The notes under the pieces: generated by a model
Databases searched by the model: none
Told to the model about the DNA's origin: nothing
Seen by the model: the letters and a program-made list of their open reading frames with translations, nothing else
DNA from: Escherichia phage MN05
Strand: one strand, 5' to 3'
Sequence record: NC_070987.1
DNA: 64,000 nt
Made by a program: the position numbers and the translations under genes
Shown here: piece by piece, positions 22,152 to 33,517 of the stretch
Layout: every line of letters begins with the position of its first letter
Position numbering within the stretch: the stretch's first letter is position 1

Positions 22152-23996
22152 CTAGTGAGTATTCATCCAATTTAATCCAATCTGACAATCAGAAGCCAGA
22201 GGACATTCCATATTCAAATACTCACCAGCCTTCTTAACACAAAGCTCGGTGTGCTCTTTGAGTTTCTGTACATCGTTACGATTAACTGAGAATTGACCTT
22301 CATCGTGCATATCAATTACCTTAGCACAACGAACTCCATCCCTCTCAATCCACTTGTTTAGGAACATCATAGCATATTTCATAACAACAGCACCAGCACA
22401 TTGCAGGAGTGTGTTAAGAGCTTTATGAACCATAACTTTACCAGTTGCATCTCGTCTCATTGTAATCTTACGACCATCAACACCAATCAAGTATCCCTGA
22501 GCAGCCTTTTCTGTCATACGATCAATGAGGATTGCAATACATGGGTTCTCTGCCAAGAAACGTGCCCGCATCACTGAACCTTCGTCAGCCCCACCACCCA
22601 CAATTGAACCGAGCTTAGCATCACCAGCACCATAGTTGAATGCGTAGATAAATGTCTTAGCGTTGTCGCGAGTAGGAAGACCAGCAAGTTTCTGGTTGTG
22701 GGAGTGGATATCACCTTCAAGGAGAATATCACGATACATAATAGCAGAAGCTAAACCACGTTCTGCCAGAGCTTTCTTAGCTGGGTTGTTCTCTTCGATT
22801 GCCTCAGCAAGCATATCCCTACACTCTTTAATGAGGTAGTGAGCGAGCATACGAAGTTCAAGTCCAGAACCATCATACCCTAAGAATACTTCTTTACCAG
22901 CGGGTATGTAATATTTGTAAGCACCTACAGGTTTGTCTTTCTTCCCCGGCTTACCTTTCTCATAAATTACGTTAGTACCTTTTCGTATATAACAACCATC
23001 AGGAACAACGTTAGTAATAACGAAAGGACGAGAGTGATCACTGTCTGAGTTATAGTCAGACTCAAACAAACTGCGACACTCATGACCAAACAAACCACGG
23101 GAGGGAATATTAACCACGATACGATGTTTGAATCGAAAAGTCGGCGTAGCGCAGCTGTTAGCTTCTGCCGAAAGTTTACCATCTTCGCGTTCCTTTGCTA
23201 TGAGTCCACTGATAAGACCTAGCCTGTGAGCCGCTACAACGCGCCTCTTAAGCAAACTTCCGACACTCCCTAGCTCACCCCCTAACCCCTCTTCAAGAGT
23301 CTCCTCGAGGTTTGTAGGAGCTGTAGGCCACTTGTTTGAGGTAGCTAGTGCTATCTTAATCTCATCAAAAGTGATAGGTCTACGTCGGTTAGGGTTTAAA
23401 CCTAAACCAAACACATAAGCCTTCATATAGTTCTTAGTTTTAAACCTAAAATGCTTCTCTAAGAACTTCCTAATATCAGCGTCAACCATCTCGGCTGTCT
23501 GTTTCTTTTTAGCATTACCTTGTATCCAAGCTGAATACCACGCTTGATATGTTCCATACTTTCTTATATCTTTCTTAATTTCAAAAGTATTCCAAGGTTT
23601 CTTTGATACGTTAAACTCTGGAGGAAGAAAACCCTCATCCATAAGGGCTTCTTTAACTCGTGCATCTTTCGATGGGTCAAAGTCTACGTACTCTACACAG
23701 GTGAAAGCTCCACCAATGTCTTCTCTCTTCAGCCCAACCCTATCACAATAGGCTTGAGGCCACTTCTGTAAAGCTCCAGACTTCTTAAACGGCTTCATGT
23801 AAGTAGAGCCATCTAATCTCATCTTAGGTAAGAGAGGAATCAACTCTCTGTCAATATTAACAATAATCTCTTTAAGGAGGTGAACATACCACCGAGCATT
23901 TCTTCGGTTGAAACTCACTCCGTGCTTTGCTTGCTTAGAGATTATATCAGCGACAGTCATCTCTGTCAAAAATGGAAGAGCGTCCGGGTTGCTCAC
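22152..23996 (-). CDS. Family-A DNA polymerase, polymerase domain only
   Basis: Motif A DGSGLELR, motif B RDNAKTFIYAFNYGAG, motif C HDE; GTG start with SD AAGGAG; no 3'-5' exonuclease domain in this ORF. Confidence 0.8.
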   Translation of the reverse strand: MSNPDALPFLTEMTVADIISKQAKHGVSFNRRNARWYVHLLKEIIVNIDRELIPLLPKMRLDGSTYMKPFKKSGALQKWPQAYCDRVGLKREDIGGAFTCVEYVDFDPSKDARVKEALMDEGFLPPEFNVSKKPWNTFEIKKDIRKYGTYQAWYSAWIQGNAKKKQTAEMVDADIRKFLEKHFRFKTKNYMKAYVFGLGLNPNRRRPITFDEIKIALATSNKWPTAPTNLEETLEEGLGGELGSVGSLLKRRVVAAHRLGLISGLIAKEREDGKLSAEANSCATPTFRFKHRIVVNIPSRGLFGHECRSLFESDYNSDSDHSRPFVITNVVPDGCYIRKGTNVIYEKGKPGKKDKPVGAYKYYIPAGKEVFLGYDGSGLELRMLAHYLIKECRDMLAEAIEENNPAKKALAERGLASAIMYRDILLEGDIHSHNQKLAGLPTRDNAKTFIYAFNYGAGDAKLGSIVGGGADEGSVMRARFLAENPCIAILIDRMTEKAAQGYLIGVDGRKITMRRDATGKVMVHKALNTLLQCAGAVVMKYAMMFLNKWIERDGVRCAKVIDMHDEGQFSVNRNDVQKLKEHTELCVKKAGEYLNMECPLASDCQIGLNWMNTH

Positions 23997-24012
23997 TTTA
24001 TACTCCTTTAAA

Positions 24013-24435
24013 TTATTGGTAAATCAAATCCGTAAATGCTTGATTGTCTTCTATCACATCTAACACGGTAGCTTCATAACTGTAAGCCCTAACCGCCCCG
24101 TTAACAACTATCCGAGGAGTAGGTGGAGGTGGTGCATGGTTAGCCCTAGCTTCACGAGGTTGCTCTCGTACTAGATGAGCCACAACTCTTTGGTTAGCGA
24201 CTTCTTCTCTTTCTCGGATAGCTCTCTGAATGTAAGCTAACTTCATGCCCCAAGCTTCTTCAAACTCTTGAGGGTGTTTATCGCTGATAACTACATACTG
24301 ACGCTCTGGATTACCTGCCCTGATATCTGACAATAGCTCGTGGAATAAATCAAGTTCATGCTCAGTGAGACTTTCTTCAATATCATCCCACTTGAGAACT
24401 AAGAAACGGTTTTGGTGTCTAGCTGGTAATGGCAT
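24013..24435 (-). CDS. Hypothetical protein
   Basis: Track ORF. Confidence 0.45.
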   Translation of the reverse strand: MPLPARHQNRFLVLKWDDIEESLTEHELDLFHELLSDIRAGNPERQYVVISDKHPQEFEEAWGMKLAYIQRAIREREEVANQRVVAHLVREQPREARANHAPPPPTPRIVVNGAVRAYSYEATVLDVIEDNQAFTDLIYQ

Positions 24436-24598
24436 TCTACTTCACCTCTACTCTAACGTAAGTTCTCTCGCCAACATCATCTTTCCAGACCCATGCCTTA
24501 GCATCTTCTTCAGACTTAAAAGCTTTCACAACGCTGTATCCACCTTCCCATTCATCACCGAACCAGCGCTGTCCTACGTAAACATATTCTTTCATTAT

Positions 24599-31653: not shown

Positions 31654-31662
31654 TCTTATTCC

Positions 31663-32961
31663 TTAGTTATTTGTTTCTACGTCAAAAGAGATTCCACGAC
31701 CCGCCTCATCGGCAAACCGAACTGTACGGGTTTGAGGTTCTAATATTTCAGGGTTGTCAGCAACAAAGCGATCAGCGAGACTCTGGTTGACAGTCTCAGC
31801 GAGTTCCCCATGAGAAGGAATATCAAAATCACCAACAGCGAAACCCTGACCAGAGAACTGACGTGCACTAACAGTCAAACCATTTGATTGACCATTAGAA
31901 CGTCTAGACAACCATCGCCCAAATGAATCGCTAGTAACACCAAGAGCTTCTTCAAAAGATGTTCTCCGGGTAGAGCTTAGGTTTCGTGCTTCGTTTGCTC
32001 GACGTCTTGCAGGGGCTACAAACACCCCTTCAACTGCATTGTGCCGATTAGGTTCATCTTCTCGACCAAGGAGATCTCCTCCTGTATTGGTTGTTAAGTT
32101 TGTCAACCCTTCAGACCAATACGCACTAATCTGACTAGATCCATGAACACTTGACATTAACTGGATTTCTTCATAAGGGATTCCAAAGAATCGACTCATG
32201 TCTTGGTCAACACAATATTGAGGACTTGCTGTGTCGCCAATAAGAGATACTTGACCTTGGTTATTAACCAGATCCCTGACCATCTGAGGTATAGGTTGTT
32301 GCCGAGCATGTGCCATATAATGAAAAGCAACTCCCGGGGTTTGGAACCTTAACACTTGTGAGTTAGGCCACTTCTTGTGGACATATTTAATCTCTCGAGC
32401 AGTCACAACCACTGGAATTGGAGAAGTCATAGCCAAGTATCCATGAACGGTCATGAATAGCTTATCAAGAGTCATAGCACCACGACACATCATAGGAAAA
32501 TTATCTAGAACCTCTTCGATAGAGGTGGGATAGTTAAACATGAATTGGATTCGCGTTCCATGCCACTGAAATTCAATGATATCAGTGAATGTTAATTGAG
32601 AAGTTCCTGCATATGGCTCATCTGTAGCTTCAGCAAGGAGAGACGAATACTCAATATCTTGTGACTCAAGCCACTCTTTCACATTGCTTTCAAGTTCGCT
32701 CCCAAGAGCTTGCCAACGGCCCACTGAAGTGAAAGTGTTTTGTGTTCTTGGTGTTTGCCCTCTGACGATAAAGATATCAATGTCGTGCGGAGCTATGTTA
32801 TTAATAACAGCATCACGAACAGCCCCACCAGTAATGATAGGGCAAATACCGTCTGGAATCAAGTTGTTGTCAATTAATTGTTCAATGAAGTGACGACCAA
32901 CAGTGATATCAGGTTGTTGAGCAACCTTATCTTCAATTTGGTTAATCGGGATAACAATCAT
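31663..32961 (-). CDS. Pol-beta-superfamily nucleotidyltransferase (CCA-adding / poly(A) polymerase-like head domain)
   Basis: GGAVRD...PHDIDIF motif; start trimmed to the ATG immediately after the exonuclease stop. Confidence 0.5.
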   Translation of the reverse strand: MIVIPINQIEDKVAQQPDITVGRHFIEQLIDNNLIPDGICPIITGGAVRDAVINNIAPHDIDIFIVRGQTPRTQNTFTSVGRWQALGSELESNVKEWLESQDIEYSSLLAEATDEPYAGTSQLTFTDIIEFQWHGTRIQFMFNYPTSIEEVLDNFPMMCRGAMTLDKLFMTVHGYLAMTSPIPVVVTAREIKYVHKKWPNSQVLRFQTPGVAFHYMAHARQQPIPQMVRDLVNNQGQVSLIGDTASPQYCVDQDMSRFFGIPYEEIQLMSSVHGSSQISAYWSEGLTNLTTNTGGDLLGREDEPNRHNAVEGVFVAPARRRANEARNLSSTRRTSFEEALGVTSDSFGRWLSRRSNGQSNGLTVSARQFSGQGFAVGDFDIPSHGELAETVNQSLADRFVADNPEILEPQTRTVRFADEAGRGISFDVETNN

Positions 32962-32962
32962 T

Positions 32963-33517
32963 TTACATTTTCCAATATAATGAAGGTGGGTCGTAAGGGT
33001 CAAATCCTGTGAGTTCACACAAGTATTTATAAACCTTAACAGTTAAGTTAACGTCCTGTTCACAGTAAGTAAACATATCTTCAGTGAAAGCATCCCATGC
33101 TTCCTCTTGCTCACCGTAATCTCCTTTAAGTTCCTCTAAGAACTCACCCCATTGCTTCAAGCCGTGACCTCTTGGGCCATGTCTAGGGTCACCTTTCGGA
33201 TACTCAGGACTGTCACCAATACGGTCAGGTTTAAGATATCGACTAAGACACAAGGTGTCGAAGACGTTAAAACGATATTTAATCAGATTGGGATACATCT
33301 TCTTCAGAGCTGGTAAGTCGAAGTCAATAATGTTATGACCCACGAGCACATCAGCTTCTGTAAGTTTACGAATCCCATCTTCAATTTGGTGAGGCCGATA
33401 GCCCCACCTTTCACCAGTTTCAACATCGAAGATGTAAATACACCATACTTTAGTTATGTCATCGTACAGTGCATTACTCTCGATATCAAATGCAAACACT
33501 TTCTTTTTCTTTACCAC
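32963..33517 (-). CDS. DEDDy 3'-5' exonuclease (likely the separately encoded proofreading subunit of the DNA polymerase)
   Basis: Exo I FDIES, Exo II HNIIDFD, Exo III Y...D; directly downstream of the primase-helicase. Confidence 0.6.

Follow-up and report, generated by a model that had tools for sequence, protein, structure and literature searches.

Introduction

The DNA polymerase of Kuravirus-group phages has been described as separate from its 3'-5' and 5'-3' exonucleases, an arrangement common to all members of the group (PMC9965538). The same split has been stated for the LUZ24-like phages and for phiEco32 (PMC3517423, citing the 2008 phiEco32 paper), and the GenBank annotation of phage Bas92 includes a "DNA polymerase exonuclease subunit". 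Within the Kuravirus group, the same genes in the same order are found in YF01 (gp49, polymerase; gp70, 3'-5' exonuclease; gp27, 5'-3' exonuclease) and in Bas92 (Bas92_0038 and Bas92_0056). In the LUZ24-like Pseudomonas phages (Bruynoghevirus), the two proteins are named "DNA polymerase part I", which is the exonuclease, and "DNA polymerase part II", which is the polymerase; in the LUZ24-like phage UFV-P2, for example, the primase-helicase and the exonuclease (ORF31 and ORF32) are followed by small ORFs and then by ORF43, which is polymerase part II.

Here we analysed a window of 64,000 nt from Escherichia phage MN05 (NC_070987.1; "the window" denotes this whole stretch of DNA), for which a first-pass annotation had proposed a split family A DNA polymerase, with the polymerase domain and a DEDDy proofreading exonuclease encoded by separate genes. 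The split polymerase of this phage is real and was correctly read, and it had already been published and annotated for the phage group; the finding itself adds little, with the arrangement present in both the literature and GenBank for the genus and for the LUZ24-like phages.

Results

Judged by its sequence, the source phage is a Kuravirus (phiEco32-like) podophage of E. coli; 16 kb around the locus show 94.2% nucleotide identity to Kuravirus NJ01 (coverage 96%), and the polymerase gene is 95-96% identical to that in 57 E. coli/Shigella phage records. The replication genes considered here are:

15186..16004, minus strand: putative 5'-3' exonuclease (FEN-like), 272 aa (Pfam 5_3_exonuc_N 4.6e-6, a weak match below the gathering score)
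22152..23996, minus strand: exonuclease-less T7-type family A DNA polymerase of 614 aa, made up of just thumb, palm and fingers (Pfam, PHROG 17, phmmer, AF2)
28442..28771, minus strand: phage thioredoxin, between the two polymerase genes (Pfam Thioredoxin 1.7e-13)
32963..33517, minus strand: stand-alone DEDDy 3'-5' proofreading exonuclease subunit, putative role, 184 aa (Pfam, PHROG, PDB sequence match, AF2)
33511..35301, minus strand: T7 gp4-like primase-helicase, 596 aa (Pfam DnaB_C 9.9e-11 and weak Toprim_2; PHROG 239 primase/helicase 1e-175)

The polymerase and exonuclease ORFs are both on the minus strand, at exactly the coordinates given in the first-pass annotation, which had placed the two genes about 9 kb apart, with PhoH, ThyX, Dps and Dcd genes between them and the exonuclease directly after the primase-helicase. 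This layout was borne out throughout; the gap between the two genes measures 8,966 bp, PhoH, ThyX, a ferritin/Dps-like gene and Dcd were each confirmed by family search, and the GTG start codon of the exonuclease gene overlaps the stop codon of the primase-helicase gene within 7 nt (GTGGTAA). Within the gap, about 25 ORFs of 50 aa or more run on the minus strand; in the relative Bas92, 17 CDS are annotated in this interval. The thioredoxin gene and a stand-alone LigA domain Ia are also located there. Because of the 7-nt stop/start overlap, translational coupling of the exonuclease to the primase-helicase is suggested. The primase-helicase has an acidic C-terminus with an aromatic last residue (…DGASPW). 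Bas92 shows primase-helicase, exonuclease and then polymerase in the order seen here, and in a 90-kb metagenomic phage contig the primase-helicase is followed by three small ORFs and then the exonuclease. Just past the polymerase gene, a PD-(D/E)XK ORF was found that is unique to the present phage as compared to its Kuravirus-group relatives. The counterpart of the ORF at 15186..16004 is annotated as "exonuclease" in Bas92 and has been described as a 5'-3' exonuclease subunit (PMC9965538); this 5'-3' exonuclease represents a third Pol I-type activity that is encoded separately, which is also the case in T7 (gp6).

The polymerase gene starts with GTG, 6 nt past an AGGAG Shine-Dalgarno sequence, and Pfam DNA_pol_A matches aa 361-611 of its product only (5e-23). 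All three polymerase motifs could be located. Motif A (DGSGLELR, 375-382; DASGLELR in T7) aligns D375 with T7 D475, and D375 and E380 are invariant among 50 homologues. In motif B (RDNAKTFIYAFNYGAG, 443-458), R443, K447, Y451 and Y455 correspond to T7 R518, K522, Y526 and Y530, in agreement with the pattern RxxxKxxx[F/Y]xxxYG; the T7 Y526 position, occupied by Tyr in the present polymerase too, is presumably the ddNTP-sensitivity site. In motif C (HDEGQ, 564-568), H564, D565 and E566 correspond to T7 H653, D654 and E655, with H564 invariant and D565 and E566 at least 90% conserved among the 50 homologues. The phmmer alignment with T7 gp5 covers T7 residues 289-703, and lineage-specific insertions are found at approximately aa 130-240, 338-370 and 390-420. 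In a Foldseek search with the AF2 model (pLDDT 90.9), ranks 1 to 27 were all T7 gp5 (E 2e-25 to 7e-19), and Pol I large fragments came next. Searches of the whole protein against Pfam, PHROGs and NCBIfam found no exonuclease family, and an HMM search of aa 1-360 found none even at E<=10; the N-terminus of the AF2 model consists of two long helices and shows no RNase H-like fold. The 614-aa protein contains the complete polymerase active site and nothing else, in line with the first-pass annotation, which had listed motifs A, B and C and no exonuclease domain. Bas93, Bas94, 1-6af and FH3 carry a group I intron in polymerase motif B, which is absent from the present phage.

For the 184-aa protein, Pfam DNA_pol_A_exo1 matched above its cut-off (1.9e-9; 38 bits versus 23.6), and PHROG 403/38876, "DNA polymerase exonuclease subunit", was matched as well. 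The Pol A-type motifs reported for this protein are all present, i.e., Exo I (FDIES, 10-14), Exo II (HNIIDFD, 61-67) and Exo III (YCEQD, 151-155), and they align with D5/E7, D65 and the YNVQD motif of T7; the catalytic residues assigned by motif are D11, E13, D67, Y151 and D155. Exo motifs were found in all full-length family members, and D11, E13, H61, N62, D67, Y151 and D155 are invariant among 31 stand-alone homologues with identities down to 35%, as for an active site kept intact by selection. The best 27 matches in a fold search with the AF2 model (pLDDT 92.3) were T7 DNA polymerase (E 3.5e-11 to 3.3e-9). The tblastn matches listed for the exonuclease, out of 1,927 phage records, fall under "DNA polymerase" features. 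A profile search found 5,229 proteins, and in the best 150 of these the match was always at the protein N-terminus (78 proteins had the size of fused enzymes and 44 that of stand-alone ones). The 184-aa protein represents an entire Pol A-type DEDDy domain with its catalytic residues intact. A C-terminal FDxxxPP tail was present in 45 of 55 stand-alone exonucleases as compared to none of nine fused proteins; this tail motif, specific to stand-alone exonucleases, is a minor addition to the known picture. The tail was not seen in the LUZ24-type exonuclease, since the tblastn alignments stop at query residue ~172.

The domain boundaries of the two proteins are complementary. Their matches to the PHROG 17 profile are adjacent without overlap (positions 668-826 for the exonuclease, 836-1233 for the polymerase); in T7 gp5 coordinates, the exonuclease covers residues 3-182 and the polymerase about 213-703; and when joined end to end, exonuclease and polymerase aligned over the full length with nine natural fused polymerases (595-633 aa) at 44-47% identity. 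Alignments with T7 gp5 and the fused relatives place the break in the interdomain linker. By these alignments, the two proteins are complementary halves of a fused ancestor that was broken at this linker.

Two promoter motifs were located between the two genes:

25559..25567, minus strand: TAATGTATA, exact middle-promoter motif (motif search; gap after PhoH)
30268..30276, minus strand: AAATGTATA, phiEco32 gp36-sigma middle-promoter motif with one mismatch (motif search; intergenic gap upstream of ORF 29899..30228)

Both the promoter motif and the early and middle gene classes were taken from SU10/phiEco32, and read-through of early transcription into middle genes has been reported (PMC4281155). 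On the upstream side of the polymerase gene, no phage-sigma promoter motif lies nearer than the one at 25559..25567; its counterpart in SU10 is the promoter "between CDSs 56 and 57", CDS57 being PhoH-like (PMC4281155). The motif at 30268..30276 appears to mark the early/middle boundary between the exonuclease (early) and the polymerase (middle). From position relative to the phiEco32/SU10 promoter map, we infer that the exonuclease and the primase-helicase belong to the early block and the polymerase to the middle block; that the two genes apparently fall into different temporal blocks is likewise a minor addition to the known picture. Different temporal blocks are odd for obligate partners, although early read-through would extend into the middle genes.

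Discussion

The locus very probably encodes a T7 gp5-type replicase with its domains on separate genes, whose halves would assemble into a proofreading holoenzyme; the complementary boundaries, the motifs and the T7 gp5 matches of both halves all support the reading as a split family A polymerase. Under the proposed mechanism, the exonuclease would be made together with the primase-helicase via the overlapping stop and start codons, and the two proteins would assemble non-covalently into a gp5-like holoenzyme, in which a mispaired primer 3' end would leave the polymerase site and enter the exonuclease site, as it does in T7 gp5 or Klenow. The FDxxxPP tail of the stand-alone exonucleases may serve for docking in place of the covalent linker that was lost. 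In the literature searched, we found no biochemical report of an exonuclease-polymerase complex with proofreading activity. Polymerase aa 63-140 align weakly (domain E ~4) with T7 gp5 residues 289-362, a region that we take to be the thioredoxin-binding loop and that is shorter in the present polymerase than in T7. The thioredoxin found here may act as polymerase processivity factor, a candidate role suggested by T7 and by a published hypothesis (PMC7881722).

An exonuclease that descended from a polymerase domain could also have become independent, working alone or with the primase-helicase (possible roles being primer or flap trimming, host DNA degradation and recombination) and leaving the polymerase without dedicated proofreading. 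This would fit with translational coupling of the exonuclease to the primase-helicase rather than to the polymerase, with its place in the early instead of the middle block, and with its distance of at least 9 kb from the polymerase; the 10 kb downstream of the exonuclease in a distant relative contain no polymerase. However, we consider an independent role unlikely, given that Kuravirus-group phages, their close relatives and LUZ24-like phages all combine a stand-alone exonuclease with a polymerase that lacks one, that the proteins closest to this exonuclease are domains fused to just such polymerases, and that its Exo I-III residues of the Pol A type show strict conservation. Lack of proofreading would also be unusual for a lytic phage with a 77-kb genome, which counts against this explanation. 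A split replicase could further have come to exploit its split, either with an early exonuclease, co-translated with the primase-helicase, that docks onto the later polymerase via its clade-specific C-terminal FDxxxPP tail as the ratio of the two proteins shifts, or through a second role of the exonuclease at the helicase; if the exonuclease:polymerase ratio changed during infection, replication fidelity or primer processing could therefore change. These possibilities were not described in the literature searched, and we regard such exploitation as quite unlikely.

It is highly improbable that the 184-aa protein is an RNA exonuclease of the RNase T/oligoribonuclease type, unrelated to the polymerase. 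Its fold is generic DnaQ-like, and diDNase/Orn-like and TREX structures were among the weaker fold matches (E ~2e-5), but Orn-like diDNases appeared only from ~2e-5, about six orders of magnitude worse than T7 gp5. The check for a better alignment with RNase T or oligoribonuclease was negative; there was no RNase_T match in Pfam or NCBIfam, T7 gp5 (residues 3-182) was the sole match in a PDB sequence search and far better by fold, and Exo III has the form YxxxD, i.e., DEDDy, unlike the DEDDh enzymes RNase T and Orn. Sequence, fold and motif together effectively refute this candidate. There is a negligible chance that the split arose artefactually, through misassembly, pseudogenisation of the polymerase, or an intron or trans-splicing event restoring one chain. 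The polymerase gene of relatives is interrupted by a group I intron, and mobile elements hence do target this gene, but that intron lies in motif B, away from the exonuclease/polymerase junction, each of the two ORFs has a start codon and a Shine-Dalgarno sequence of its own and recurs at the same length in dozens of independently sequenced phages, several of the ORFs between them have confirmed protein families, and a 69-kDa polymerase was seen in phage SU10 by mass spectrometry (PMC4281155).

A sequence-only reading recovered a true split replicase, and the in silico proof of complementary boundaries is clean. The system, with a conserved exonuclease tail and a thioredoxin of its own, would represent a convenient model for how a family A polymerase and a detached proofreading domain meet. 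It could also provide a T7-like polymerase that naturally has no exonuclease and carries Tyr at the presumed ddNTP-sensitivity position.

Comparison with known systems shows the split arrangement to be conserved throughout the phage group and also outside it. The Kuravirus-group counterparts show no essential difference from the present pair (polymerase 95-98% and exonuclease 97-98% identical). LUZ24-like polymerases also lack an exonuclease domain and are 39-42% identical over the full length; however, they are shorter (~545 aa), with part of the insertions missing, and the split genes are ~2 kb apart as compared to 9 kb here. A T7-like family A polymerase in two ORFs has also been found in marine phages (MEP401-type OM43 phages and an uncultured cyanophage lineage), but the MEP401 break is inside the polymerase domain, with one small ORF (possibly an intron) between the parts, and not at the exonuclease/polymerase junction. 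In the E. coli Pol III core, the alpha polymerase and the DEDD exonuclease epsilon (DnaQ) are separate subunits that assemble non-covalently; as this polymerase is family C rather than A and epsilon is DEDDh, the likeness is an analogy only and the arrangement is not homologous. The compact fused enzymes of uncultured phages (P0161-P0175, 595-633 aa) have all motifs in common with the present pair, but are single chains without the exonuclease tail motif and without the three polymerase insertions. Finally, T7 gp5 is the closest solved structure for both halves, with the same catalytic motifs, and its polymerase likewise has a primase-helicase of the gp4 type as partner, with the 5'-3' exonuclease again on a separate gene; while T7 combines exonuclease and polymerase in one 704-aa chain and uses host thioredoxin, the present phage has two chains and its own thioredoxin.

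Domain content of the two proteins

The first-pass annotation had proposed that MN05 encodes a family A DNA polymerase lacking an exonuclease domain, with a stand-alone DEDDy exonuclease carrying Pol-A-type Exo I, II and III motifs encoded about 9 kb away. The two ORFs are as follows:

22152..23996, minus strand, polymerase, 614 aa
32963..33517, minus strand, exonuclease, 184 aa

The polymerase ORF starts with GTG, 6 nt downstream of an AGGAG Shine-Dalgarno sequence, and its Pfam DNA_pol_A match (5e-23) covers only aa 361-611. All three polymerase motifs were located: motif A (DGSGLELR) at 375-382, motif B (RDNAKTFIYAFNYGAG) at 443-458, and motif C (HDEGQ) at 564-568. 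They align with T7 gp5 residues D475, R518/K522/Y526, and H653-D654-E655, respectively. No exonuclease domain was detected in the whole polymerase by Pfam, PHROGs or NCBIfam, nor in aa 1-360 by Pfam even at E<=10; NCBIfam matches on the proteins were limited to sub-threshold, uninformative ones to Pol I and PolC. Structures were modelled one protein at a time. In the AlphaFold2 model of the polymerase (pLDDT 90.9; 50-sequence alignment), the N-terminus is predicted to form two long helices and an insertion at about aa 130-240 is predicted to be mostly helical, both unlike an RNase H-like fold, which agrees with the proposed lack of an exonuclease domain; the closest structures were T7 DNA polymerase (ranks 1-27; E 2e-25 to 7e-19), with Pol I large fragments ranking next. 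A cryptic exonuclease within the first 360 aa or the 110-aa insertion was rejected, given the helical predicted secondary structure and the lack of any HMM match at E<=10.

The small protein is a polymerase-type exonuclease. It matches Pfam DNA_pol_A_exo1 over the gathering score (1.9e-9) and carries Exo I (FDIES, 10-14), Exo II (HNIIDFD, 61-67) and Exo III (YCEQD, 151-155); no substitution of D11, E13, H61, N62, D67, Y151 or D155 occurs among 31 stand-alone homologues, whose identity falls as low as 35%. Among all PDB chains, its sole sequence match was to T7 gp5 residues 3-182 (E 6e-12). The 27 best fold matches of its model (pLDDT 92.3) were likewise T7 gp5 (E 3.5e-11 to 3.3e-9), followed by other family A polymerases (apPol, DpoZ), while Orn-like diDNases, TREX and the exonuclease domains of family B enzymes appeared only at about 2e-5. 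A tblastn search with the exonuclease matched 1,927 phage records and, among the matches listed, it falls within features labelled as a DNA polymerase or as the exonuclease subunit of one.

Complementarity of the two halves

On the PHROG 17 'DNA polymerase' profile, the exonuclease occupies positions 668-826 and the polymerase positions 836-1233; on T7 gp5, similarity to the exonuclease runs to about residue 188 and similarity to the polymerase from about residue 213, which places the split point in the interdomain linker. When the two sequences were joined, the pair aligned over its full length, at 44-47% identity, to nine natural fused (single-chain) polymerases of 595-633 aa from metagenomes. 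The two halves are thus complementary, and both genes are intact and conserved. Compared to the fused polymerases, the window polymerase has three insertions and the exonuclease an additional C-terminal tail; the tail motif, [F/I/Y][D/E]xxx[N/D]PP, was found in 45 of 55 stand-alone homologues versus none of the nine fused proteins. Out of 1.8 billion representatives, a profile built from the stand-alone exonucleases matched 5,229 proteins; in the best 150 of these, the match was at the N-terminus in every case, and 78 had the size of a fused polymerase (at least 540 aa) and 44 that of a stand-alone exonuclease (at most 240 aa).

Gene order and neighboring genes

All genes of the split lie on the minus strand, with 8,966 bp separating exonuclease and polymerase. 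The PhoH, ThyX, ferritin/Dps-like and Dcd genes that the first-pass annotation placed between them were all found in the interval, which also holds genes for a thioredoxin, a nucleotidyltransferase and a stand-alone LigA domain Ia, along with numerous small ORFs. The exonuclease directly follows the primase-helicase (596 aa; DnaB_C plus Toprim; PHROG 239), as claimed, its GTG start overlapping the upstream TAA stop by 7 nt; the next gene begins 1 nt past the exonuclease stop. Other features in or near this region include:

31663..33018, minus strand, protein of about 432 aa directly after the exonuclease, with a GGAVRD…DIDIF head
26692..27015, minus strand, 107-aa stand-alone NAD+-binding LigA domain Ia (Pfam Nlig-Ia, 3.6e-35), without adenylation domain
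33511..33600, minus strand, primase-helicase C-terminus, an acidic tail ending in an aromatic residue (…DGASPW)

The first of these genes probably starts at the ATG at 32961. Such a head is characteristic of nucleotidyltransferases of the CCA-adding or poly(A) polymerase type; the product matches PHROG 12715 (8.7e-225) with no Pfam match, its C-terminal half is apparently of low complexity, and the homologue in the related phage NJ01 is annotated as 'nucleotidyltransferase domain of class II CCA-adding enzyme'. The LigA-like product, labelled 'DNA ligase' in relatives, may modulate the LigA of the host instead of functioning as a ligase. T7 gp4 has an acidic, Phe-terminated tail that binds gp5; the primase-helicase tail resembles it in being acidic with an aromatic end, and would by analogy fit a T7-like helicase-polymerase contact. 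Finally, accessory genes near the replication module (16533..16925, 19430..19933 and 35521..35940, all minus strand) encode a YspA/SLOG-family protein, a calcineurin-like phosphoesterase and a gamma-glutamyl cyclotransferase, the last of which adjoins RimK-like and amidotransferase genes in relatives.

Promoters and temporal blocks

In the SU10/phiEco32 transcription map, middle genes start at a promoter that precedes the ORF adjacent to the Dps gene (PMC4281155). The window carries the phiEco32 gp36-sigma promoter motif with one mismatch at that spot (30268..30276) and an exact copy after PhoH (25559..25567); as counts of one-mismatch 9-mers were at chance level, only exact and intergenic copies were read, together with the published map. 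Map and motif positions therefore assign the exonuclease and primase-helicase to the early block, and the polymerase to the middle one. No terminator was found at the end of the SU10 early genes (PMC4281155), and read-through into the middle genes is therefore likely. Additional observations on promoters and the early region are:

4305, 9557, 18987, plus strand, and 18926, 25559, minus strand, five exact copies of TAATGTATA, the gp36-sigma motif, located where SU10 late (plus strand) and middle (minus strand) promoters are expected
23941..23969, minus strand, perfect 12/12 sigma-70 promoter (TTGACA, 17 nt, TATAAT, extended -10 TG)
58027..58054, minus strand, second perfect sigma-70 site
49879..49954, minus strand, tRNA-Arg(TCT), the single tRNA gene, in the early region

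A generic sigma-70 scan of 21.5-36.5 kb found no overall enrichment (24 sites versus 30.7 expected), and the two perfect sites in the 64-kb window compare with 0.01 expected. The site at 23941..23969 lies in sense direction 27 nt into the polymerase coding sequence (codons ~10-19), such that any transcript from it would lack the polymerase start codon; it is identical in Bas92 and Bas93, phages too close for an informative comparison.

Probable mobile elements at the polymerase gene

Two elements were noted at this gene, one in the window and one in the related phage Bas93:

21719..22141, minus strand, 140-aa PD-(D/E)XK endonuclease ORF (Pfam PDDEXK_5, 1.6e-7), 10 nt past the polymerase stop
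2856..3559 of the Bas93 sequence (L002), 704-bp polymerase-gene insertion with an endonuclease VII ORF, corresponding to polymerase nt 1354 (about window 22643)

The former had no megablast match in 50,697 phage records, with flanks conserved in relatives, and probably represents either a free-standing homing endonuclease or a mobile insertion beside the polymerase gene. Polymerase-gene insertions were seen in Bas93, Bas94, 1-6af, 1-6bf and FH3; the window has none. The Bas93 insertion, which falls between Y451 and A452, mid-motif B, matches Rfam Intron_gpI under the gathering score (35.8 bits, E 2.8e-7). Metagenomic 'polymerases' of about 450 aa probably correspond to the first exons of polymerase genes with such an insertion; a literature search found no report of a Kuravirus polymerase intron.

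Proposed mechanism and alternative explanations

We propose that exonuclease and polymerase would reassemble into a gp5-like holoenzyme, which would proofread by shuttling the primer terminus from one active site to the other; the exonuclease tail motif may serve as a docking element, and exonuclease synthesis could be coupled to that of the primase-helicase via the overlapping stop and start codons. The phage thioredoxin (28442..28771) may act as a processivity factor, a role also hypothesized for thioredoxin in phage Privateer (PMC7881722); the polymerase matches the thioredoxin-binding region of T7 gp5 weakly.

An autonomous role of the exonuclease, outside such a holoenzyme, appears improbable. 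Membership in the RNase T/Orn group was rejected and is effectively refuted by the DNA_pol_A_exo1 match, the sole PDB match to T7 gp5 and the far weaker Orn-like folds. That the split is an artefact or intron product is also effectively refuted.

Comparison with known systems

The 16 kb around the split show 94.2% identity over 96% of their length to Escherichia phage NJ01 (genus Kuravirus, subfamily Gordonclarkvirinae), and the polymerase gene shows 95-96% identity to 57 records. The split is confirmed and its interpretation is supported; the arrangement itself is already known. The GenBank record of Bas92 has the homologues in the same order, as 'DNA polymerase' and 'DNA polymerase exonuclease subunit', and a passage of PMC3517423, which describes the split for LUZ24-like phages too, credits the split in phiEco32 to the 2008 phiEco32 genome paper. 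According to PMC9965538, all members of the Kuravirus group share the separation. In the LUZ24-like phage UFV-P2, a primase/helicase (ORF31) is followed by an overlapping 'DNA polymerase part I' (ORF32), about 10 small ORFs and 'part II' (ORF43), and LUZ24-type polymerases show 39-42% identity across the full length of the window polymerase. Given the Bas92 annotation, the literature and the LUZ24-like phages, the split in MN05 represents a re-discovery.
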